Origin: a virus
Strand: one strand, 5' to 3'
Virus record (IMG/VR): IMGVR_UViG_2917938226_000001
DNA: 37,497 nt
The position numbers and the translations under genes were made by a program. Shown here one piece after another: positions 1-37,497 of this stretch. The notes beneath the pieces were generated by a model, which was not told the origin of the DNA, ran no database searches, and saw only the letters and a list, made by a program, of their open reading frames with translations. Each line of letters opens with the position of its first letter. Positions within the stretch are counted from its first letter, which is position 1.

Positions 1-95
1 GCCTTACCATGCCGGGCCTCGCCGCGATCCCCTCACCCTCACGGGATCATCGGGGGAAAGCCGTCATGGAGGTCTGACCCTCCACGGCGGTAAAC
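1..95. repeat. Terminal direct repeat, left copy (circularity overlap)
   Basis: 1-95 is identical to 37403-37497, including 25 bp unique to pentamer tract 1; indicates a circular contig of about 37,402 bp. Confidence 0.92.
26..95 (-). ncRNA. 70-nt double-hairpin constant unit of the pentamer array, copy A (also 37428-37497)
   Basis: Minus strand GTTTACC GCCGT GGAGG gtcaga CCTCC atg ACGGC TTTCCCCCGAT GATCCC gtgagggtgag GGGATC; 69/70 identical to 169-238. Confidence 0.75.
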
Positions 96-166
96 CCTGC
101 CATACCTTGCCTTGCCTTGCCTGGCCAAGCCAAACCTCACCGTACCTTACCTCAGCCTGCCGTGCC
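92..166 (-). ncRNA. GGY-NN pentamer tract 2 (15 units), putative guide RNA
   Basis: Plus strand NN-RCC in exact 5-nt register, 14/15 perfect; minus-strand NN series AC AG GA AA AC GA TT TT CA AA AA AA AT AG TT. Confidence 0.85.
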
Positions 167-168
167 TT

Positions 169-238
169 GATCCCCTCACCCTCGCGGGATCATCGGGGGA
201 AAGCCGTCATGGAGGTCTGACCCTCCACGGCGGTAAAC
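169..238 (-). ncRNA. 70-nt double-hairpin constant unit, copy B
   Basis: One mismatch to 26-95, located in the loop of the GATCCC/GGGATC hairpin. Confidence 0.75.
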
Positions 239-294
239 TCTGCCATACCTCGCCTAGCGCTGCCATGCCCGGCCTCGCCACACCTTGCCATACC
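235..294 (-). ncRNA. GGY-NN pentamer tract 3 (12 units), putative guide RNA
   Basis: 10/12 units perfect and register kept; minus-strand NN series AT AA GT GA CG AT AG TA GA AT AG TT. Confidence 0.82.
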
Positions 295-328
295 TCGGGC
301 GCCCCTTCGGAAATAACTCCTCAGAGGC

Positions 329-340
329 GTATAATATCTT
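329..340 (-). promoter_or_regulatory. Putative archaeal BRE/TATA promoter of the pentamer array
   Basis: Minus strand AAGA-TATTATAC; predicted start near 303-308, just upstream of tract 3. Confidence 0.55.
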
Positions 341-6005: not shown

Positions 6006-6935
6006 TTACGCATGTGACGTATAGCCCAATTCGATCATGGCGATTCCTCGCAGGATAGGGTAGACCTGTTGCGGCACGACGGCGTTTCCGAGGGCTCGCA
6101 GTCGCTCCACCCGTCCGGAAACCCCATCAACCACTCGACCCACCGAGGGCTCAACTGCCCACTGGCCCCCTCGTGGATCAGAGCACCAGGTATCGAATCC
6201 CGATCCTTCTGTGACTGTGGGAGAGTCGAGTTCTTGGCGTCCTGGGCGCACGGCGTCGGGAACATCGCCGCCGCCTGAATCAATTTCATGGCGTGCCGGG
6301 TTTTCCCGGTATACTCCTTCCCCTTCAGATCTCCGCAGGTCGCATCGAAACGGGTTGGTGTCGGGAACATCGCCACGGCCGTCTGGAGGCCTGGTCCGCC
6401 CTCCCCGTGCACACATTTCCCCGTCGAGGAGTTCGCCCGCGGCGTGGGCCACAACGAACACTCTCTCTCTCTGGTGCGGGGCACCGACGCCCGCAGCCGG
6501 AATATGGAACGGCCGGCAGGTGTAGCCGATACGCTCCAGGTCAGCAATGCAATCGTCGAGTGCCAAGCTGATGATTCCAACAACATTCTCTCCAAACACC
6601 CAAGCGGGCCGGAGCTCCTGCACAATGCGGAGCATTTCCGGCCAGAGGAAACGGTCATCCTCTGTGCCTCGTCGCTGCCCGGCGAGGGAGAACGGCTGGC
6701 ACGGGAACCCGCCGGAGAGGAGGGTCGGGCGTTCGATGCCGGCGTCCCGGAGAGCGTCATTTGTAACGGTTCGCACATCGTCGAATCGTGGGACGTCTGG
6801 CCAGTGTTTCGCGAGGTCTTGCTGGCAGTACGGGTCTTGCTCGACCTGGGCGACGGTGCGGAATCCGGCCCACTCTGCGGCAAGGTCGATCCCGCCAATG
6901 CCAGTGAAGAGGCTGAGGTGTGTGAGGTCATTCAT
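6006..6935 (-). CDS. DNA (cytosine-5)-methyltransferase, alpha-type polypeptide
   Basis: Motif I LFTGIGG, IV GGFPCQPFS, VI ENV, VIII RER, X LGNAVVP; no motif IX. Confidence 0.93.
   Translation of the reverse strand: MNDLTHLSLFTGIGGIDLAAEWAGFRTVAQVEQDPYCQQDLAKHWPDVPRFDDVRTVTNDALRDAGIERPTLLSGGFPCQPFSLAGQRRGTEDDRFLWPEMLRIVQELRPAWVFGENVVGIISLALDDCIADLERIGYTCRPFHIPAAGVGAPHQRERVFVVAHAAGELLDGEMCARGGRTRPPDGRGDVPDTNPFRCDLRRSEGEGVYRENPARHEIDSGGGDVPDAVRPGRQELDSPTVTEGSGFDTWCSDPRGGQWAVEPSVGRVVDGVSGRVERLRALGNAVVPQQVYPILRGIAMIELGYTSHA
6035..6931 (-). CDS. Nested alternative-frame beta-type polypeptide of the C5 methyltransferase
   Basis: 298-aa stop-free frame with three (W/F)PTP repeats and motif IX-like QLSPRWVEWLMGFPDGW; real start may be internal. 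Confidence 0.7.
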   Translation of the reverse strand: MTSHTSASSLALAGSTLPQSGPDSAPSPRSSKTRTASKTSRNTGQTSHDSTMCEPLQMTLSGTPASNARPSSPAGSRASRSPSPGSDEAQRMTVSSGRKCSALCRSSGPLGCLERMLLESSAWHSTIALLTWSVSATPAGRSIFRLRASVPRTRERECSLWPTPRANSSTGKCVHGEGGPGLQTAVAMFPTPTRFDATCGDLKGKEYTGKTRHAMKLIQAAAMFPTPCAQDAKNSTLPQSQKDRDSIPGALIHEGASGQLSPRWVEWLMGFPDGWSDCEPSETPSCRNRSTLSCEESP

Positions 6936-10577: not shown

Positions 10578-10696
10578 TAGTAGTGCCGTTCCGTTCGCTG
10601 TCCCCAAGCTACACGCCTGGAGGGATAGCTGATGATATGTTGCCCCCCCCTGGTTGATATTGTTTTGGGTCATTGCGCTCTATGCGGGGTGAGTTT

Positions 10697-12988
10697 ATGA
10701 CCGAGGTTGGGGATCACGGCCACGGCGCAAAGATCACGGCATCTCGGGAGAAATACCTATACAGAATTGCCAGAGATCTGCATTCGCAGAACCCTGTCGA
10801 GAACTTTCTAGAGGATCTTCAAGACACAAATCGGAAAGTAATTTCGCCGCCCCTCCCTGAAGAGACGGTATCTCAAATCTATAAAGATGTGGCCGGGTGG
10901 AATCTCCAATTCACGCCGCAGATATACCAGATGCACGTGCCGCCAGGTTCAATATCTGCAATCGTAGAGGGCATGCGCCGGGTAGTGTCTGAAAATGATG
11001 GAGATCAGACTAAAAAGGAAAATACCCGGGCTATAGAAATTAGAATGTGCCACCGCCTCGACGATAAAGAGAATGGGGCCGTTGTGCCCATCGAGATCCC
11101 CCTCAGAATGGATCTCAGTACTCTCCAATATATCGAGGGGGCGGGGGCTCGGATTGTAGGCAATCCCTACCATGAAGTTGAACCCTACGAGGCAGTCCGA
11201 TTTACCAACGCGATGGATCTAGATCGGATATTTTACCATGCCCAATCTGTATACCAGGAGCGAAACGCCACAAATGCGCCGAAGATCATCACAGATGAAA
11301 ATCTGATGAAGATGAGAGAGGCGTTCATCGAACGCGCACGCGGGTACCTAGAGCGCGGGGATGATGAGTGCTCGGTCCTGAACGACCTCATCAACGAAGA
11401 CCGTGGGCACTATTTCTGGGAAATTCGGATCTCAGATATTGTTGGGGCTGCGAAGGATGCCGTCCAACGCGCCAATAGTAATGCTCGCCTTCAGAACAAT
11501 CCTCTTCTGAAACTAACTCCTGCAAGTGTTGCGGAGAGGTTTGTAGACCTAAAAGGGAAAGAGATCAGATTTGTCTACGATCTGAAGATCTGGAGAGTCT
11601 GGAACGGCATTCGGTGGGAAGATGACCCCGCCGAGGTGAAAATTCAGAAGAAAATTAAGGAAGTTGTCTCGAACTTGGCAAAAGAGGCCACGCTTACCGT
11701 GGAGGATGAAAAAATCTTGGGGGCGGTTACCAAATTCTTCAAGGGACTGCTCTCCAATGGAGGAATCAAGGGACTAATTGAGATTATATCACGAGATGAA
11801 AAAATTGCCACGAGTTATGGGCACTTCGACGCAGACCCGTACCTCCTGAACTTTGAAAACTGCACATATGACTTGCGAACGTTTACAGGCCGTCCACATT
11901 CCCCCGATGATCTGATCACCAATGTCGCGGGCCAGGGGACGGATCCCGACACTGGAGAAACCATGACAGTCAGGTACGACCCCTCGGCCAAGTGCCCCCT
12001 CTGGAAGAAGAGCCTCGAAGAATGGTTCCCGTTGGATCATGATCATAACCCACATGGGAAAAACGTAGACCGCGATACAATCGAATCCCTCCAGGTTCGA
12101 TTGGGATACAGTATTTCAGGAAATGCCATTGAAGACGACTTCCTGGTGTGGTATGGATTGAAGGGGCGAAATGGAAAGGGGGTATGCAAGGATATTACTA
12201 TGGCAGTTCTTGGAACCTATGCCACGGTATCTGACCGAACCTTAGTCATTGAAACGTATGAAACGGGGAAAGGAGGATCCAGAGGAGACCTCAAAAATCT
12301 CATTGGGAAACGCCTCGTTTTCGTAGATGAACTTAAAAGGAAAGATAGGTTGGACTGCGCGTTTGTGAAGGACTGGTGCGGGCACGGCATCATATCTTTC
12401 CGGCCGCCATACGGATCCAACGAAATCCATATGCGCCCCGCAGGATCCATCATACTCCTCACAAACAATCTGGGATCTATTGAAAGTGCCGACAGTATAT
12501 GGGACAGGTTGAGGATTGTCCCGTGGACCAAGTACTTTGGTGAGAACGAAAGGAAAAAGAATCTCAGATCCGAGTTGTTCAAAGAATTGCCGGGCATTAT
12601 AAACTGGTACCTTGAAGGCTACAAAAAATATACTCAACTAAAAAAATTGCCAGAATCCAACGCAATGCATGCATCACGGGTGAAATACATGGAGGACAAC
12701 AACCCTCTGGCAGACTGGATCGCCGATGAGATGATATTGGCGAATGAGGCCCCAAAATCTCAAAGGCACAAAATAAAAACTCTAAAATCGGAAGTTTACA
12801 CGTATTATAAAAACTGGGCGCTAAATGAAGGATATGATAAAAAAGAGTACCTTGGAAGAACCACATTCTACAAGGAACTTGAGGATAAATACAGAGGAGT
12901 GATCACCCTTAAAACCATACAAGGCAGTAGATTTTATCAAGGAATATGTCTTAGATATCGGTTTGAAAATGATAAACATACGCTCTAA
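10697..12988 (+). CDS. P4/D5-family primase-associated SF3 helicase (PriCT-like N-terminus, D5_N, helicase)
   Basis: PPLPEETV (PriCT-like), WRVWNGIRWEDD, YLLNFENCTYDL, Walker A GRNGKG, Walker B RLVFVDE, IILLTN, WDRLRIVPW; GGTGA RBS. Confidence 0.88.
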   Translation: MTEVGDHGHGAKITASREKYLYRIARDLHSQNPVENFLEDLQDTNRKVISPPLPEETVSQIYKDVAGWNLQFTPQIYQMHVPPGSISAIVEGMRRVVSENDGDQTKKENTRAIEIRMCHRLDDKENGAVVPIEIPLRMDLSTLQYIEGAGARIVGNPYHEVEPYEAVRFTNAMDLDRIFYHAQSVYQERNATNAPKIITDENLMKMREAFIERARGYLERGDDECSVLNDLINEDRGHYFWEIRISDIVGAAKDAVQRANSNARLQNNPLLKLTPASVAERFVDLKGKEIRFVYDLKIWRVWNGIRWEDDPAEVKIQKKIKEVVSNLAKEATLTVEDEKILGAVTKFFKGLLSNGGIKGLIEIISRDEKIATSYGHFDADPYLLNFENCTYDLRTFTGRPHSPDDLITNVAGQGTDPDTGETMTVRYDPSAKCPLWKKSLEEWFPLDHDHNPHGKNVDRDTIESLQVRLGYSISGNAIEDDFLVWYGLKGRNGKGVCKDITMAVLGTYATVSDRTLVIETYETGKGGSRGDLKNLIGKRLVFVDELKRKDRLDCAFVKDWCGHGIISFRPPYGSNEIHMRPAGSIILLTNNLGSIESADSIWDRLRIVPWTKYFGENERKKNLRSELFKELPGIINWYLEGYKKYTQLKKLPESNAMHASRVKYMEDNNPLADWIADEMILANEAPKSQRHKIKTLKSEVYTYYKNWALNEGYDKKEYLGRTTFYKELEDKYRGVITLKTIQGSRFYQGICLRYRFENDKHTL

Positions 12989-13023: not shown

Positions 13024-13063
13024 GATAATCAAACTATATAGATGATAATCGAACTATATAGAT
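13024..13063. repeat. AT-rich 20-bp tandem repeat x2
   Basis: GATAATC(A/G)AACTATATAGAT twice. Confidence 0.8.
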
Positions 13064-13092
13064 CGAAATGTTCACAGCGCTAACTTTTTGGG

Positions 13093-13190
13093 ACTCTGCA
13101 CCCTGACCCTACAACTCTGCACCCTGACCCTACAACTCTGCACCCTGACCCTACAACTCTGCACCCTGACCCTACAACTCTGCACCCTGA
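13093..13190. repeat. 21-bp iteron array (4.7 copies), putative replication origin
   Basis: ACTCTGCACCCTGACCCTACA x4 plus a 14-bp partial copy, directly downstream of the helicase. Confidence 0.9.
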
Positions 13191-16900: not shown

Positions 16901-19594
16901 TCACCTGTAGAGTTTGTATTCGGATTTCCGCATGTATACGAACACTCCCAGGAACGTCAGTGCCGCGACGATGGGCGCGAGAGCGAGGGGGAGCCACCCG
17001 AGGAAGACCGGGAGCCCGCCGCCGAAGAGCGGGACGATGATCGCACCCTGTCGGACGCGAGGCCCTGAGAAGAGGCTACCGAGACCGATAATCCAGCAGA
17101 CCGAGATGAGCTGATACCAGAACTCATCTTCGAACCCGAGATCCACCAACCGTCCGGTGCCGTGAAGCGTAATCTCCCGGTAGTTGGAGATGGTGCCATA
17201 CTGCGTGTGCGTCGCGTTGAACCCGTAGGACGCGGTGGTCGGATGCGTGTTGTCGATGGCGTACGAGGAGTTGATCCATCCGGCGGCGTTTGGTGCAGAA
17301 GATTCAGTGTAGAGCACTGTGCCGGCCGCGTCCTTCACCCAGAAGTTGAGTGTTGTGGTGCCGTTGACGCCCTGTGGATCATGGTAGGAGAGGGCGAGCG
17401 AGATGGATTCGGGGGAGACTTCTGTTGCGGTGAGGTCGTAGGAGGGGTACTGTGCGCCGGCCGGAGCGTCACGAAGCCTGAACTGGATGGTGTACTCCGC
17501 CTCTTTCGGGAAGATAGAGAAGGTGGTGGACGTGTTCGAGACCGGATCGAAGGCGTCGATCTGGTAGCGGATGCACTCGATCATCAGGAAGTTGATCGAC
17601 CCGTCGAGGCCGGTGGTGCCGGAGAGCGTCGCGGTGGTGATGTTTGCGCAGTCACCGACCGGGACACCGATGAGGTTGCTGAGCCAGTCGTCAGGGTTGG
17701 ATATCTCGATGTAGGCCGCGGAGAGTTGGACGCCGGGCATCGGGGCGCCGTAGTCGTCGATGCAGTGGAACCGGACGGTCCGCGGGACGTAGTTCCCGGT
17801 AGACGGCGGCGCTGCGGCGGCCTGTTTGGTGAGTAGCAGCGTCACTTTCGTGTCCCGGTCAACGAAGGCGTAGGTGGATGTCGGGTAATATCCCTGCGCC
17901 GCGGCAGAGACCGTGTACGACCCGTAGCCGACGGTGAAGCGGGCGGTGCCGGAGGAGGTGACGGTTTCCTGCCCGTCGGTGAGTGAGACCGTGGTGGAGT
18001 TGGTGAGGATGGTGCCGGCCTCTGCGTCTTTGACGGTGACGTTGAGGGTGAACGACGAGGCGAGGGCGACGTTGCGCTGTGTGACTCCATCGACGACGAC
18101 CGTCTCGGTTATGCCGGTGTGCCCCGGTGCAGAGGCAGAGAGGGTGTACTGCCCGTTGGCGACGTCGGCGAACTCGTAGAACCCCGTGGAGGTGGTGACG
18201 GTGCTGTCGGACCATGAGGCGTTGTTGACCGCGACGGTGGCGCCGGAGATGCCCTGCGCTGAACCCTGAGCGTAGACCTGGCCGTAGAGGGATGTGGTGT
18301 TTGCCGGCGGCGGGGTGTCGGGGTAGAGGTAGAGGTTGATTGCCCAGGTGGAGAGGCGCGGGACGCTGGTATATTCAGTGGTTTGTGAGGTGTAACCGGA
18401 TTTGCTGACGGTGAACGAGACGGGGAAGTCGGGGTTGAGCGGTGTGATGCTGAAGTATCCGGCGCTGTCGGTGGTATCGCTGTCGCTGGTGCCTGCGGCG
18501 GGTTGTGCGGCGGAGACGGTGGCGCCCTCGATGACGGTGCCGGTGGTTACGTCGTAGACGAAGCCGGTGGCGGTGACGTTGGTTTTCGGGTCGATGTACA
18601 TGCCGCTGATCGTTGCGGTGGCAGAGGGAGAGGCGAGTTCTTTGAGCGAGGAGTCGTAGACGCGGCAGGTGATGGTGTGGCGCCCTTCGGAGGGGAAGGA
18701 GAGAGATTGTGTTTTTGCGGCGGCGGCTGTAGTGGCGTGGGAGTAGGTGCCGGTGAATTGGTCGTATTCGTACCATGTGGAGCCGTTGAGATGGTAGGTG
18801 TTGTAGAGGGCGCCGTCGGTGAACCACGAGATGTACGCGTATTCGGGGGCGTCGGCGGCGGCGGATAGGGTGGCCTGGATGGGTTCGTAGACGGCGGCGG
18901 TGGTGGGGGAGAGGGAGAGAATGAAATATGTGGTGTCGGGGTCGTTGGGGAGGTCGGGGGCAGGATCTACATAGACATAATCATAATCTCCCTGAGATAT
19001 AACATAAGCCCACGCCGCAGTACCAAACGTCGGATACATAGCAGACGGCGCAGACGTGGTTAAAACCCGCCAGTCAGCATCATCGATGGCAAATTTCAGA
19101 GTAGTACCTTCAACACGAAACTTATACACATGATAAGAAGAACCCGTTATACGCTCCTCATTAACTAACTTAGACGAACTAGACCCACTACAACGATAAA
19201 CATTGAACCCCGTAGACCATAAACCAACGTGAATCCCATTTCTCGTACTCACATCATACGCAGGAGAAGTACCCGTGAAAAGACCAAAAATGATCTGGTT
19301 CCCCCCAGCATGACGTACCCGAAAATGACATTCATAGGTCCCGCTCATCGAATTAGGATACTGATACCAGTTCCACCGCTTCGCAAGGGAACCCGAATTG
19401 GTCCAGATAGACGCAACACCGACATCCACCGACGACGATCCCCCCGAGACTCGATGATTCCAGACAGACGAGATGGATCCACCGAAGTCGTCCCTAAAAT
19501 CTTCGTAGGCGCTGACGGGGGCGACGGCACCGATCATCATCAATGCGAGGGCGGCGAGGATCACCAACCGTGGCGTGCCTCCTCCCGGCGTCAA
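16901..19594 (-). CDS. Large spike/adsorption-like protein (about 890-900 aa): signal peptide, lectin-like beta-sandwich, carboxypeptidase-regulatory-like repeats, C-terminal TMs
   Basis: LVILAALALMMIGAVAPVSA; GFVYDVTTGTVIEGATVS...TDSAGYFSI and GISGATV...TTSTGFYEF repeats; many N-x-S/T sequons; TTG start inferred. Confidence 0.8.
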   Translation of the reverse strand: MTPGGGTPRLVILAALALMMIGAVAPVSAYEDFRDDFGGSISSVWNHRVSGGSSSVDVGVASIWTNSGSLAKRWNWYQYPNSMSGTYECHFRVRHAGGNQIIFGLFTGTSPAYDVSTRNGIHVGLWSTGFNVYRCSGSSSSKLVNEERITGSSYHVYKFRVEGTTLKFAIDDADWRVLTTSAPSAMYPTFGTAAWAYVISQGDYDYVYVDPAPDLPNDPDTTYFILSLSPTTAAVYEPIQATLSAAADAPEYAYISWFTDGALYNTYHLNGSTWYEYDQFTGTYSHATTAAAAKTQSLSFPSEGRHTITCRVYDSSLKELASPSATATISGMYIDPKTNVTATGFVYDVTTGTVIEGATVSAAQPAAGTSDSDTTDSAGYFSITPLNPDFPVSFTVSKSGYTSQTTEYTSVPRLSTWAINLYLYPDTPPPANTTSLYGQVYAQGSAQGISGATVAVNNASWSDSTVTTSTGFYEFADVANGQYTLSASAPGHTGITETVVVDGVTQRNVALASSFTLNVTVKDAEAGTILTNSTTVSLTDGQETVTSSGTARFTVGYGSYTVSAAAQGYYPTSTYAFVDRDTKVTLLLTKQAAAAPPSTGNYVPRTVRFHCIDDYGAPMPGVQLSAAYIEISNPDDWLSNLIGVPVGDCANITTATLSGTTGLDGSINFLMIECIRYQIDAFDPVSNTSTTFSIFPKEAEYTIQFRLRDAPAGAQYPSYDLTATEVSPESISLALSYHDPQGVNGTTTLNFWVKDAAGTVLYTESSAPNAAGWINSSYAIDNTHPTTASYGFNATHTQYGTISNYREITLHGTGRLVDLGFEDEFWYQLISVCWIIGLGSLFSGPRVRQGAIIVPLFGGGLPVFLGWLPLALAPIVAALTFLGVFVYMRKSEYKLYR

Positions 19595-23626: not shown

Positions 23627-23992
23627 TTACTTCTGGCGCGGCATCAGGACGTAGAGCGCACCAAGGATACCGACAGCCGCCATGATGATCAGCGTGATCG
23701 CCAGGAGACCGTACCCGCTCTGGGTCGTGGTGGCCAGACTGGTCTGGATTCCGTGCCAGGACGAGTTGTCGGGGATGGCGGGGGTCCCTGCCTCGATGTT
23801 GTAGAGGATCACAACGCCGATAGCCATCACGACTGCCGCGACGATGAACCCGAGGACAACATTGACGTTGCCATCCTCCACGTCCATCTTGTACCGGTCC
23901 CTGACGGCGCTAGCGCCGCCGGTTGCGTATACGGCGAGGAGTTCCTTGCCGTACTTGGTGTACTTTTCAATCAGAGTCATCTTTCCTTTCAC
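23627..23992 (-). CDS. Candidate major capsid protein of spindle-shaped-virus type (propeptide plus hydrophobic helical hairpin)
   Basis: Charged 40-aa leader ending DVEDG, helix 1 VVLGFIVAAVVMAIGVVILY, linker with NSS sequon, helix 2 LLAITLIIMAAVGILGALY, basic end; own AT-rich promoter; next to the ATPase. Confidence 0.7.
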   Translation of the reverse strand: MKGKMTLIEKYTKYGKELLAVYATGGASAVRDRYKMDVEDGNVNVVLGFIVAAVVMAIGVVILYNIEAGTPAIPDNSSWHGIQTSLATTTQSGYGLLAITLIIMAAVGILGALYVLMPRQK

Positions 23993-25124: not shown

Positions 25125-25522
25125 TATTCGCCACTTCCGCGCCTATCCTCTGCGGGGGAAGGTCTCTTGTTCAGGAGCATGTCGGAGAAGTACATGTCTT
25201 GCGATGCGATGGAGATCAAGTCTTCATTCAGGCATACAGTGACGAAATAGTCCATGATGTCTGAGGTTTTTGAGAGTGTTTCAGCCCAGAGGCTGCTATC
25301 GTTGGCAAAGGACGTTGCAACCTTATCCCACGTCTTCTTCCACTCAACCCAGTCTGAGAGGAATTGGGCGGGGGGCTTCCCTTTCTTTTTTTGAATAGCC
25401 GCCCATGTGAGGGACATGACGGAGCGGGACAACCGAAGCGCCTGGGCGGGATCCGTGGAGCATGACGCCACCACAATCAGGCGACCAAGAGCCTCTTTAT
25501 AATCATTGGGTATAATGCCCAT
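25124..25522 (-). CDS. Hypothetical protein
   Basis: 132 aa, TAATG coupling to the ATPase. Confidence 0.7.
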   Translation of the reverse strand: MGIIPNDYKEALGRLIVVASCSTDPAQALRLSRSVMSLTWAAIQKKKGKPPAQFLSDWVEWKKTWDKVATSFANDSSLWAETLSKTSDIMDYFVTVCLNEDLISIASQDMYFSDMLLNKRPSPAEDRRGSGE

Positions 25523-36138: not shown

Positions 36139-36564
36139 ATGGAGCATATGGAGCAGAAACAGGTACCTCTCTTCACGGAGGTGGATCTGATTTCGATCTA
36201 CACCAGGGAGGACGCAATTAGAGATGGCCTCCTGGTGGACGTATCAGAGATGGGCCGCGAGGCTGGGTTTAGGATCCCGGTCGCGGTCACGCGAAAGTTG
36301 TGGGACGAGTATATAGTACCTGACCCGCGCTCTGTCCCCTACGGCCAGAGTGTGGACGGTCGCCTCTGGGATACCCTGTGGATGAGCCACCTCGCGGCCC
36401 GCTGCAGGCCGGACACGGACCGCGTGCAGTACAGCGTGCAGTACAAGGTCATCTACATCATGAAAACCGCACAGCGGAGGGGGATCACTCTGGAGATGCG
36501 GGTCGGGGCCGCAGACCCACAGGGTCGCCCCTGCATCACGATCATGCTCCCGGGGGAGGACTGA
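36139..36564 (+). CDS. DUF6573-like protein
   Basis: IYTREDAIRDGLLVDVS...PVAVTRKLW...GRLWDTLWM...ITIMLPGED. Confidence 0.78.
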   Translation: MEHMEQKQVPLFTEVDLISIYTREDAIRDGLLVDVSEMGREAGFRIPVAVTRKLWDEYIVPDPRSVPYGQSVDGRLWDTLWMSHLAARCRPDTDRVQYSVQYKVIYIMKTAQRRGITLEMRVGAADPQGRPCITIMLPGED

Positions 36565-36791
36565 TGGACCCCGCCCCACATCCTCGGACCACCAGGATGC
36601 TGATCGGCGATGTGGAGATCGTCGATAGCGTCGAGGACAACCGCGTGCAGGTGTTTTTCCCCGGCAAGCCGGCCGAGGAGGTGCGCAAGCGGCTCAAGTC
36701 GTCCGGGTTCCGGTGGTCGCCCAGGAACGGGTGTTGGCAATCGTACCGCGGTGCGGGGTACCTCGCCGCGGCGCAAAAAATAGTTTCCTAA
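36564..36791 (+). CDS. Small protein resembling the C-terminal domain of DUF3560-type proteins
   Basis: NRVQVFFPGKPAEEVRKRLKSSGFRWSPRNGCWQ. Confidence 0.68.
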   Translation: MDPAPHPRTTRMLIGDVEIVDSVEDNRVQVFFPGKPAEEVRKRLKSSGFRWSPRNGCWQSYRGAGYLAAAQKIVS

Positions 36792-36797
36792 TCTACT

Positions 36798-37337
36798 CTA
36801 TTTTTCCCACTTCGTAACCATAAAGCGGCCAAACGGCCCCTTCCGTTCTGGCCGGAAGTCCAGAAGGCCGACCTTCGCCCCTGCATCATCCACGACCGTC
36901 CTGAGTTGCGCCTCCGTCAGCATTTCAGGATCGTAATCGAGGGTGAACCGAACTTCCCACTGGTCCAGACGCGGACGGTACCGAACTATCCGGCCCTTTG
37001 TCGCAGAGATCACGACGGGGCGCGCGTCGATCTTGTAGTCGGTCGTCCCCAGGCCGCACTGGTCCGGGGAAACGAACACGCAGGCCGCCACGGGTTTTTG
37101 CAGGCTGGCCCTGCCTTTCCCCTTCGAGTAGACCGCTGCGGCGATCAATGCCCTCTGGATCGCAACGCCAGGAATGTACAGTTCCTTCGTCTCTTCGTCG
37201 CGGTATGCGGCTATCTCTGCCTGTTCCTCTTTCGACTTCTTTTCAATCGCATGCACGGGTTCCATGGGGAATCGGTGCATAAGGAGAGCAGATCCCTCAA
37301 CGCCCTCAATTGTTACTTTAACTTTTTTTACAGCCAT
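36798..37337 (-). CDS. Stand-alone Cas7/RAMP-like protein, putative Vipr-type effector of the GGY-NN array
   Basis: N-terminal beta strand VKVTIEG..LLMH, LYIPGVAIQRALIAAA (RAMP YIPGSSxKG-like), W-V-F-L strand, C-terminal Gly-rich loop GAKVGLLDFRPERKGPFGRF; immediately downstream of the pentamer array. Confidence 0.8.
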   Translation of the reverse strand: MAVKKVKVTIEGVEGSALLMHRFPMEPVHAIEKKSKEEQAEIAAYRDEETKELYIPGVAIQRALIAAAVYSKGKGRASLQKPVAACVFVSPDQCGLGTTDYKIDARPVVISATKGRIVRYRPRLDQWEVRFTLDYDPEMLTEAQLRTVVDDAGAKVGLLDFRPERKGPFGRFMVTKWEK

Positions 37338-37340
37338 AAT

Positions 37341-37425
37341 TTACCTCGCCTCGCCGTGCCGTGCCTCGCCGTGCCGTGCCTCGCCATGCCAAACCTCACC
37401 TGGCCTTACCATGCCGGGCCTCGCC
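37341..37425 (-). ncRNA. GGY-NN pentamer tract 1 (17 perfect units), putative guide RNA or leader
   Basis: Minus-strand NN series GA CC AT AA CA GA TT AT GA AC AC GA AC AC GA GA AA; ends 3 nt before the ATG. Confidence 0.88.
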
Positions 37426-37497
37426 GCGATCCCCTCACCCTCACGGGATCATCGGGGGAAAGCCGTCATGGAGGTCTGACCCTCCACGGCGGTAAAC
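37403..37497. repeat. Terminal direct repeat, right copy
   Basis: Identical to 1-95. Confidence 0.92.

Follow-up and report, generated by a model that had tools for sequence, protein, structure and literature searches.

Systems of the Viral Interference Programmable Repeat (VIPR) kind consist of a minimal RAMP protein with an RRM core, G-loop and thumb, Vipr, that polymerises on guide RNAs built from GGY/NN repeats and ending in a structured tail (vrRNAs). One Vipr protomer is bound per repeat, GGY is kept out of reach, the NN dinucleotides are left to read double-stranded DNA (dsDNA) with one base skipped between them, and experiments with Escherichia phage SUSP1 show that bound targets undergo transcriptional silencing (10.64898/2026.04.26.720920,.720927). 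All natural targets given in these April preprints are satellites, prophages or other VIPR systems (10.64898/2026.04.26.720920,.720927), and VIPR has so far been described as a weapon between mobile elements. Guides against cas genes are not mentioned in the VIPR preprints (10.64898/2026.04.26.720920,.720927, 10.64898/2026.10.15.759431) or in an October 2026 language-model paper. Here we describe a GGY-NN array lying upstream of a gene for a 179-aa Vipr homologue in the IMG/VR record IMGVR_UViG_2917938226_000001, a stretch of 37,497 nt that we call the window. The array itself is ordinary for VIPR; what is new is its reading as an anti-CRISPR matched to its host. Judged from its sequence, the array probably works as an RNA-guided inhibitor of CRISPR immunity, since two of its three guides, 3 and 2, spell conserved parts of the host genes cas5c and cse1.

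The array, its Vipr gene and its host

The assembly holds two contigs, of which the window is the second (C2) and a 2.87-Mb chromosome (C1) the other. An exact 95-nt terminal overlap closes the contig into a circle of 37,402 nt. The chromosome is archaeal by its small-subunit ribosomal RNA (model score 1,565 bits) and carries two mcrA genes, which together identify the host as a methanogen. The array and the 179-aa gene sit on a 37.4-kb circular extrachromosomal element, either a virus or a plasmid, of a methanogenic archaeon. A megablast search with 10 kb of the element against GenBank phages gave no match.

Direct reading of the minus strand of the circularised contig gave the following order over the junction: TATA-like box, tract 3, constant unit, tract 2, constant unit, tract 1 and the vipr ATG. 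This is the alternation of tracts and double hairpins that had been proposed in an earlier, sequence-only reading of the same DNA. The features of the locus are:

330..337, minus strand: TATA-like box with the letters ATATTATA as read directly, some 25 nt upstream of tract 3
240..304, minus strand: tract 3 (candidate vrRNA guide 3), 13 in-phase 5-nt units
169..238, minus strand: constant unit (promoter-proximal copy), made up of hairpin 1 and then a kink-turn-like hairpin
97..168, minus strand: tract 2 (candidate vrRNA guide 2), a leading NN and 14 units making 15 NN, with the deviant trimer GCT
26..95, minus strand: constant unit (vipr-proximal copy), which the terminal overlap repeats at 37428-37497
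37341..37427, minus strand: tract 1, a leading NN and 17 GGY units making 18 NN, the distal 25 nt being repeated as window 1-25
36798..37337, minus strand: vipr gene, 179 aa, a stand-alone RAMP (phrog_4652) by homology and fold
36775..36780, minus strand: oligo-T (T6), about 20 nt past the vipr stop, read directly from the sequence

In every tract the unit has GG plus C or T fixed and the next two bases variable. The number of NN dinucleotides depends on how the edges are drawn, being about 11-13 in tract 3, 15 in tract 2 and 18 in tract 1. The three tracts of the sequence-only reading are thus real, and its counts of 12, 15 and 17 units are off by about one, depending on the edges. From GGTAT onward tract 3 has 11 units, and its deviant trimers CCC and CGC stay in register, as does GCT in tract 2, which bears out the earlier remark that deviant trimers keep the 5-nt phase. 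The two 70-nt constant units are, as had also been noted, 69/70 identical while the NN bases differ between tracts; their single difference lies in the tetraloop (GCGA vs GUGA). Tracts 2 and 3 share their last two units, which are probably part of the constant segment. The 54-nt piece common to both constant units has, in contigs of the probable source run, a depth of 500 compared to 226-269 in the flanks. A depth about twice that of the flanks indicates exactly two constant units, with no copies collapsed in the assembly, and so supports the unit number although the contig ends fall inside the array. No comparable GGY-NN tract was found elsewhere in the window, and the 2.87-Mb chromosome contains no run of at least 6 perfect GGYNN units, from which we conclude that the array is not a product of chance.

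Tract 1 stops 3 nt short of the vipr ATG (37337), and its last units provide a Shine-Dalgarno-like motif, GAGG. At the other end of the array, the TATA-like box and its spacing are kept in the relative L019. Because the host is an archaeon and the box is conserved in that relative, we read ATATTATA as probably the archaeal promoter of an array-vipr unit, with a predicted transcription start downstream of it. Similarly, T6 is probably the archaeal terminator that would close this unit of about 1 kb.

The 179-aa protein matched the PDB chain 36pp_D ("SUSP1 Vipr protein") with a phmmer E of 1.4e-6. Its AlphaFold2 model (predicted local distance difference test score, pLDDT, 87) had Csm3/Cas7 structures as top Foldseek matches (E about 1e-6), and its open reading frame belongs to phrog_4652, a family of unassigned function, with about 1,350 homologues of similar length. 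The residues that contact GGY in SUSP1 Vipr, R138, D177, W178 and R179, align in the phmmer alignment with R121, D160, F161 and R162; this alignment stops short of the N-terminus, and SUSP1 H17 probably corresponds to H21 here by position alone. All five residues (R121, D160, F161, R162 and H21) are invariant or nearly so among 29 homologues. GGY-NN tracts precede the homologous gene in 9/14 IMG/VR loci and in close relatives. The three tracts of the window each show the hallmarks of a vrRNA, namely at least 4 tandem YNNGG units beside vipr with GGY fixed and NN variable, and the NN bases vary between tracts and between relatives with GGY retained. The structured extension expected of VIPR is represented by the 70-nt covarying unit, in an architecture unlike the SUSP1 pseudoknot tail. 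Because of the Vipr homology, the RAMP fold, the conserved GGY-contact residues and the GGY-NN tracts before homologues, we assign the array and the 179-aa protein to a VIPR system. A CRISPR-Cas locus (repeat-spacer array with cas1/cas2 or effector cas genes) was not found on the element, whose sole RAMP is Vipr. The earlier proposal of a CRISPR-analogous array in which the pentamer tract takes the place of the spacer is supported by the VIPR preprints on GGY/NN vrRNAs and by the Vipr homologue downstream.

Guide matches in the Cascade genes of the host

In the host chromosome the type I-C locus (array, cas3, cas5c, cas8c, cas7c, cas4) is intact, and so is the type I-E locus (array, cas3, cse1, cse2, cas7e, cas5e, cas6e, cas1, second array), and three additional I-E-type arrays are located elsewhere in the chromosome. 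Seven host spacers, 3 of I-C and 4 of I-E, match the element perfectly, and six of them adjoin a canonical protospacer adjacent motif (PAM). In the window the protospacers and their adjoining trinucleotides are:

23634-23667, 25173-25205 and 25329-25360: I-C protospacers, 5'-TTC each
6457-6488 (AAG), 10785-10816 (ACG), 17592-17623 (AAG) and 18295-18326 (ATG): I-E protospacers

The matching I-C spacers are leader-proximal, numbers 5-7 of 69 from the leader end. Perfect spacers and intact cas operons together with a co-resident element are a classic indicator of an anti-CRISPR.

We compared the NN series of each tract with both strands of the chromosome, allowing 0-3 skipped bases between dinucleotides. 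Targets were obtained only with a 1-nt skip; skips of 0, 2 and 3 gave no target, and a skip of 3 recovered just the tracts themselves. No guide matched the element itself. Tract 3 matched cas5c at chromosome positions 342479-342516 with 22/26 NN (85%), or 20/22 (91%) when the two shared last units were left out, the preprint cut-off for natural targets being at least 80% NN match with a 1-nt skip. This match was the unique genome-wide top (next best 19), and when the order of units was permuted a total score of 22 was reached in 7/3000 trials, and the local score in 1/170. The site comprises codons 22-34 of cas5c (TIGR01876, E 7e-55), it is in frame with the skip on the wobble position, and it encodes the motif PEMKVERVSYD. 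The 11-unit pattern of tract 3, with at most 3 mismatches, was found at exactly one site in each of 14/61 related genomes, compared to 0/61 for the reversed-pattern control. At these sites the NN bases do not change, the skipped bases are free to vary, and the same two mismatches come back every time.

Tract 2 matched cse1 (casA) at chromosome positions 2023444-2023487 with 22/30 NN, including 8 consecutive perfect units, also in frame. The site is inside cse1 (TIGR02547, E 6e-88), at codons 129-139. The ungapped local score of 16 was the unique genome-wide top (next 12; permutation 3/170), and cse1 gave the only zero-mismatch match to the 8-unit core in 31 genomes; the homologous cse1 codon in relatives is TGG, not TTC. 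The 13-unit pattern of tract 2 with at most 3 mismatches was found in 0/251 genomes of the order, and the 8-unit core with 2 mismatches allowed was dropped as too noisy to use. Exact 10-unit scans of IMG/VR with tracts 2 and 3 gave 0 matches. Permuted guides placed their top match in cas interference genes in 1.4-1.8% of trials. Both the cas5c and the cse1 site are within the 5' part of the first Cascade gene after cas3 in the I-C and I-E operons, respectively.

Of the three different guides announced by the sequence-only reading, tracts 2 and 3 match specific targets, under the 1-nt-skip rule only, and tract 1 is without a convincing target in the genomes and databases searched. The best total match of tract 1 (25/36, in frame, C1:1400432-1400484, in an mcrA paralogue) was rejected with a permutation p of about 0.4, not significant, and so was its best local match, a tandem GAGACGACT repeat that is out of frame. 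Two 12-unit sub-patterns of tract 1 with at most 3 mismatches were found in 0/251 and 0/41 related genomes, an exact 10-unit scan of IMG/VR gave 0, and an exact scan of 185k species genomes gave 2 Pasteurellaceae matches, about the chance expectation. Tract 1 may guide against a target outside our sample, or it may serve the vipr mRNA as a leader to which Vipr binds, or both.

We extended the comparison to 19 guides, made up of the three window tracts and 16 tracts from related elements. Tract 1 of L038, a contig binned with a Methanoregula metagenome-assembled genome and encoding a Vipr 84-85% identical to that of the window, gave an unbroken run of 11 perfect units over codons 3-14 of cse1 in this host (LNLIADPWIPVR), with a score of 22 against a permutation maximum of 16 and a next genomic match of 12. 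L065 carries one I-E guide and one I-C guide, as the window does. Its tract B spells FTRPEMK of cas5c, which is its top match in this chromosome, and its tract A spells the cse1 N-terminus of related hosts. At one position the guide from tract A of L065 has CG (Arg), which fits DRW of the relatives, and the L038 guide has CC (Pro), which fits DPW of this host; this pairing represents covariation between guide and target. In L040, seven perfect units cover the NGNPNGDP motif of cas7c. Altogether, 5/19 guides had their genome-wide top match within about 0.6% of the chromosome. Every one of the six guide-target pairs is in frame, puts the skipped base on the wobble position and has the guide in the mRNA sense; guides in the mRNA sense rule out antisense pairing with cas mRNA and fit binding to DNA. 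No cas match was seen for the remaining guides, five of which come from L019 and L025, and these guides were used as non-cognate controls. A match of L019 tract 2 at the end of cas3 scored 13, compared to 12 for the next, and was out of frame, so that we regard it as marginal. The L039_0 "tract" ran into hairpin sequence, and we set aside its 16-point match in a DxNGDG-repeat protein as spurious.

Some tracts contain internal duplications. A GA-AC-AC block occurs twice inside tract 1 (window 37341-37427), an 8-unit block is present twice in L040:1152-1271, and a 4-unit block twice in L037:1276-1365. Guides may grow by in-phase duplication of such blocks.

The constant unit and the surroundings of vipr

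Alignment of 10 constant units from 6 related elements showed two hairpins. Hairpin 1 has a stem of 7 or more pairs, of which two are conserved, as is its loop (GGGUC..ACC), and 5/7 predicted pairs change on both sides. The second hairpin is predicted to fold with the layout CCCC-GAU-GA-stem-GNRA-stem-GA-GGGG, in which the parts of a kink-turn can be recognised: a 4-bp C-stem, a 3-nt bulge (GAU or AAU), tandem GA/GA, a non-Watson-Crick 3b.3n, an NC-stem and a GNRA loop. Strict instances numbered 10, in the 6 elements, and their C-stems are compensatory (CCCC:GGGG, UGCC:GGCA and CCUC:GAGG). In sequence, then, the constant unit is a covarying hairpin followed by a hairpin with the features of a kink-turn.

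Each tract other than the first starts 1-3 nt past the kink-turn hairpin, and each tract other than the last leads into hairpin 1. The 4-8-nt linker between the two hairpins is an obvious candidate site of transcript cleavage. A search of Rfam with the constant unit returned no family, and no hammerhead or other ribozyme was detected at the gathering threshold or at E up to 10, where only chance-level matches were seen; a tRNA or tmRNA was not found either. A leader hairpin upstream of tract 3 that is somewhat kink-turn-like was dropped, as L019 does not conserve it and it probably lies upstream of the point where transcription starts. The 9-nt unit CCCCGATGA is present just upstream of the kink-turn hairpin, three times in L025 (2300-2345) and five times in the same region of L030. 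The copy number of CCCCGATGA differs in this way although the two contigs are otherwise near-identical.

The neighbourhood of vipr may also be shared among related elements. The next gene in the window is:

36139-36564, plus strand: DUF6573 gene, convergent to vipr

Genes for DUF6573 and DUF3560 recur beside vipr in the relatives L019 and L024-L030, which suggests a conserved neighbourhood. In L025 a 253-aa gene overlaps the end of vipr. Two other loci, L062:1-511 and L063:400-901, encode homologues with about 70-75% identity to the Vipr of the window, and before them stands another conserved and structured leader, some 200 nt long, with almost no GGY-NN tract; these may represent a guide-poor or alternative-repeat branch. 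Apart from the vipr region, the window has a perfect 21-nt tandem repeat with 4.7 copies (13093-13190) and a 20-nt repeat with 2 copies (13024-13063), both just downstream of a gene for a D5-type primase-helicase (10673-12988). The tandem repeats at 13024-13190 may be replication-origin iterons.

Alternative explanations, model and relation to known systems

An ordinary VIPR array directed against competing mobile elements, in which the cas matches are a coincidence, would agree with the published natural targets, all of them satellites, prophages or other VIPR systems, with the lack of a cas match for tract 1 and most guides of relatives, and with a match of tract 2 under the 80% cut-off. We consider this unlikely, since coincidence would not be expected to place the genome-wide top match of 5/19 guides inside about 0.6% of the chromosome, or to let guides from different elements converge on the same codons with guide and target covarying. 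The exact 10-unit scans of IMG/VR also revealed no viral target for any of the three tracts, a weak negative because such scans detect exact matches only. Another explanation is that the tracts act mainly in cis as a leader, where Vipr or a host protein coats the 5' untranslated region of vipr for autoregulation or stability and the NN bases have no targeting role. This is suggested by tract 1, which lacks a target, abuts the vipr ATG and holds the Shine-Dalgarno-like GAGG, and by the last tract abutting the start codon in 6 of about 9 close relatives. It leaves unexplained, however, why tracts 2 and 3 have gapped matches with a skip of 1 only, and why tract B of L065, the vipr-proximal tract of that element, matches cas5c, and as a general account we find it quite improbable. 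A leader role could hold for tract 1 alone, beside RNA-guided targeting of cas genes by the other tracts.

The location of the array at the contig junction, and GG tracts with 3-nt loops that could in principle form two-tier quadruplexes, might also suggest that the feature works at the DNA level, be it as replication-origin iterons, as a packaging site or as a G-quadruplex, or that it is an assembly artefact at contig ends. This is hardly credible given that many unrelated contigs hold the array at a fixed place, with a promoter-like box on one side and the vipr ATG on the other and in most cases at a distance from contig ends, that its hairpins show strand-specific covariation, and that the contig depth fits two real copies of the constant unit.

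Several points weigh against RNA-guided targeting of cas genes itself. Tract 3 has two fixed mismatches in all genomes examined, the overall NN match of tract 2 is 73-77% and thus below the preprint cut-off of 80%, tract 1 has no match of at least 80% in the chromosome or the element, and for 13/19 guides the sampled loci hold no target. We became aware of the cas class after the first match, and tract 2 and the guides of relatives then served as tests. The experimentally studied Viprs do not include an archaeal one, and the operon has neither the accessory gene vap, typical of VIPR but not universal, nor any co-oriented gene after vipr. Finally, the element may also encode protein anti-CRISPRs, and the assembly could mix cells that differ in their spacers.

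The proposed mechanism of cas targeting would begin with one transcript of about 1 kb, running from the TATA-like promoter through the array and vipr to T6, that yields Vipr and two or three guides. Both this transcription and its processing are inferred for the locus, the guide RNAs probably arising by cleavage of the transcript within the constant units. The filament, the skip rule and silencing are taken from SUSP1: by that analogy Vipr protomers would polymerise along the GGY-NN tract, one per repeat, with GGY hidden and NN presented, and the filament would bind dsDNA having the same NN series with one base skipped between. Guide 3 would read codon positions 1-2 of the conserved PEMKVERVSYD motif near the start of cas5c (type I-C), and guide 2 would read codons 129-139 of cse1 (type I-E). 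As each site falls within the first Cascade gene of its operon, the bound filament is expected to stop Cascade transcription and to disarm both CRISPR systems. If cas genes are silenced as SUSP1 targets are, the host spacers against the element would become harmless.

In a wider form, it seems on balance likely that VIPR arrays serve the mobile elements of Methanomicrobiales as anti-CRISPRs that are RNA-guided and programmable, with guides reading codon positions 1-2 of conserved motifs in Cas5c, Cse1 and Cas7c and the wobble base skipped, so that one guide would silence the Cascade operon of many host species and one array would disarm I-C and I-E together. Host and element are present here in one complete assembly, and the guides spell conserved codons of both Cascade operons. 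Should silencing prove true, this would be the first RNA-guided anti-CRISPR acting on cas genes themselves, and a relative of the CRISPR RAMPs would have been turned against CRISPR itself. It would also give a selective reason for the wobble-skipping code, which tolerates synonymous drift and could match a conserved protein motif across a whole host order, and VIPR function would then reach into archaea, where the guide scaffold is a distinct one based on a kink-turn. The cas5c and cse1 sites offer a simple natural target pair for an uncharacterised VIPR type.

Compared to SUSP1, the exemplar of VIPR type II, the locus likewise has a stand-alone minimal RAMP beside tandem GGY-NN repeats and a conserved structured element after each tract, and it is likewise carried by a mobile element that none of its guides match. 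It differs from SUSP1-type systems in its archaeal host, in the position of the array, which lies upstream of vipr in the same predicted transcription unit with the last tract touching the start codon, in a two-hairpin unit with a kink-turn instead of the SUSP1 pseudoknot tail or a hammerhead, and in the lack of a vap gene in the operon. The inferred targets, too, are interference genes of the host CRISPR-Cas systems, unlike the rival mobile elements targeted by known VIPR. The kink-turn resembles those of box C/D sRNAs, the U4 5' stem-loop and Kt-7, which archaeal L7Ae binds, in its C-stem, 3-nt bulge, tandem G.A, 3b.3n and NC-stem, the last capped here by a GNRA loop. In contrast to these RNAs, it is directly 5' of a vrRNA tract, with no methylation guide sequences and no D'/C' boxes.

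With CRISPR arrays and the Cas7 backbones of class 1 effectors the system would share a RAMP filament on a guide RNA, by analogy with SUSP1, and it shares the alternation of variable guides with constant structured segments; the modelled fold of the window protein is also closest to Csm3/Cas7. Its 5-nt register with sequence-specific capture of GGY contrasts with the 6 nt and sequence independence of Cas7, and it has a gapped target code and no 60-79-nt repeat-spacer units, cas1, cas2 or adaptation module. The proposed outcome, survival of an element despite perfect host spacers, is the same as that of Acr proteins, of RNA anti-CRISPRs (Racr, solitary repeat units) and of Aca-type repression. 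The mechanism proposed here, however, is neither a protein that inhibits the effector nor a decoy CRISPR RNA, but a programmable, RNA-guided binding to cas genes that would silence their transcription.
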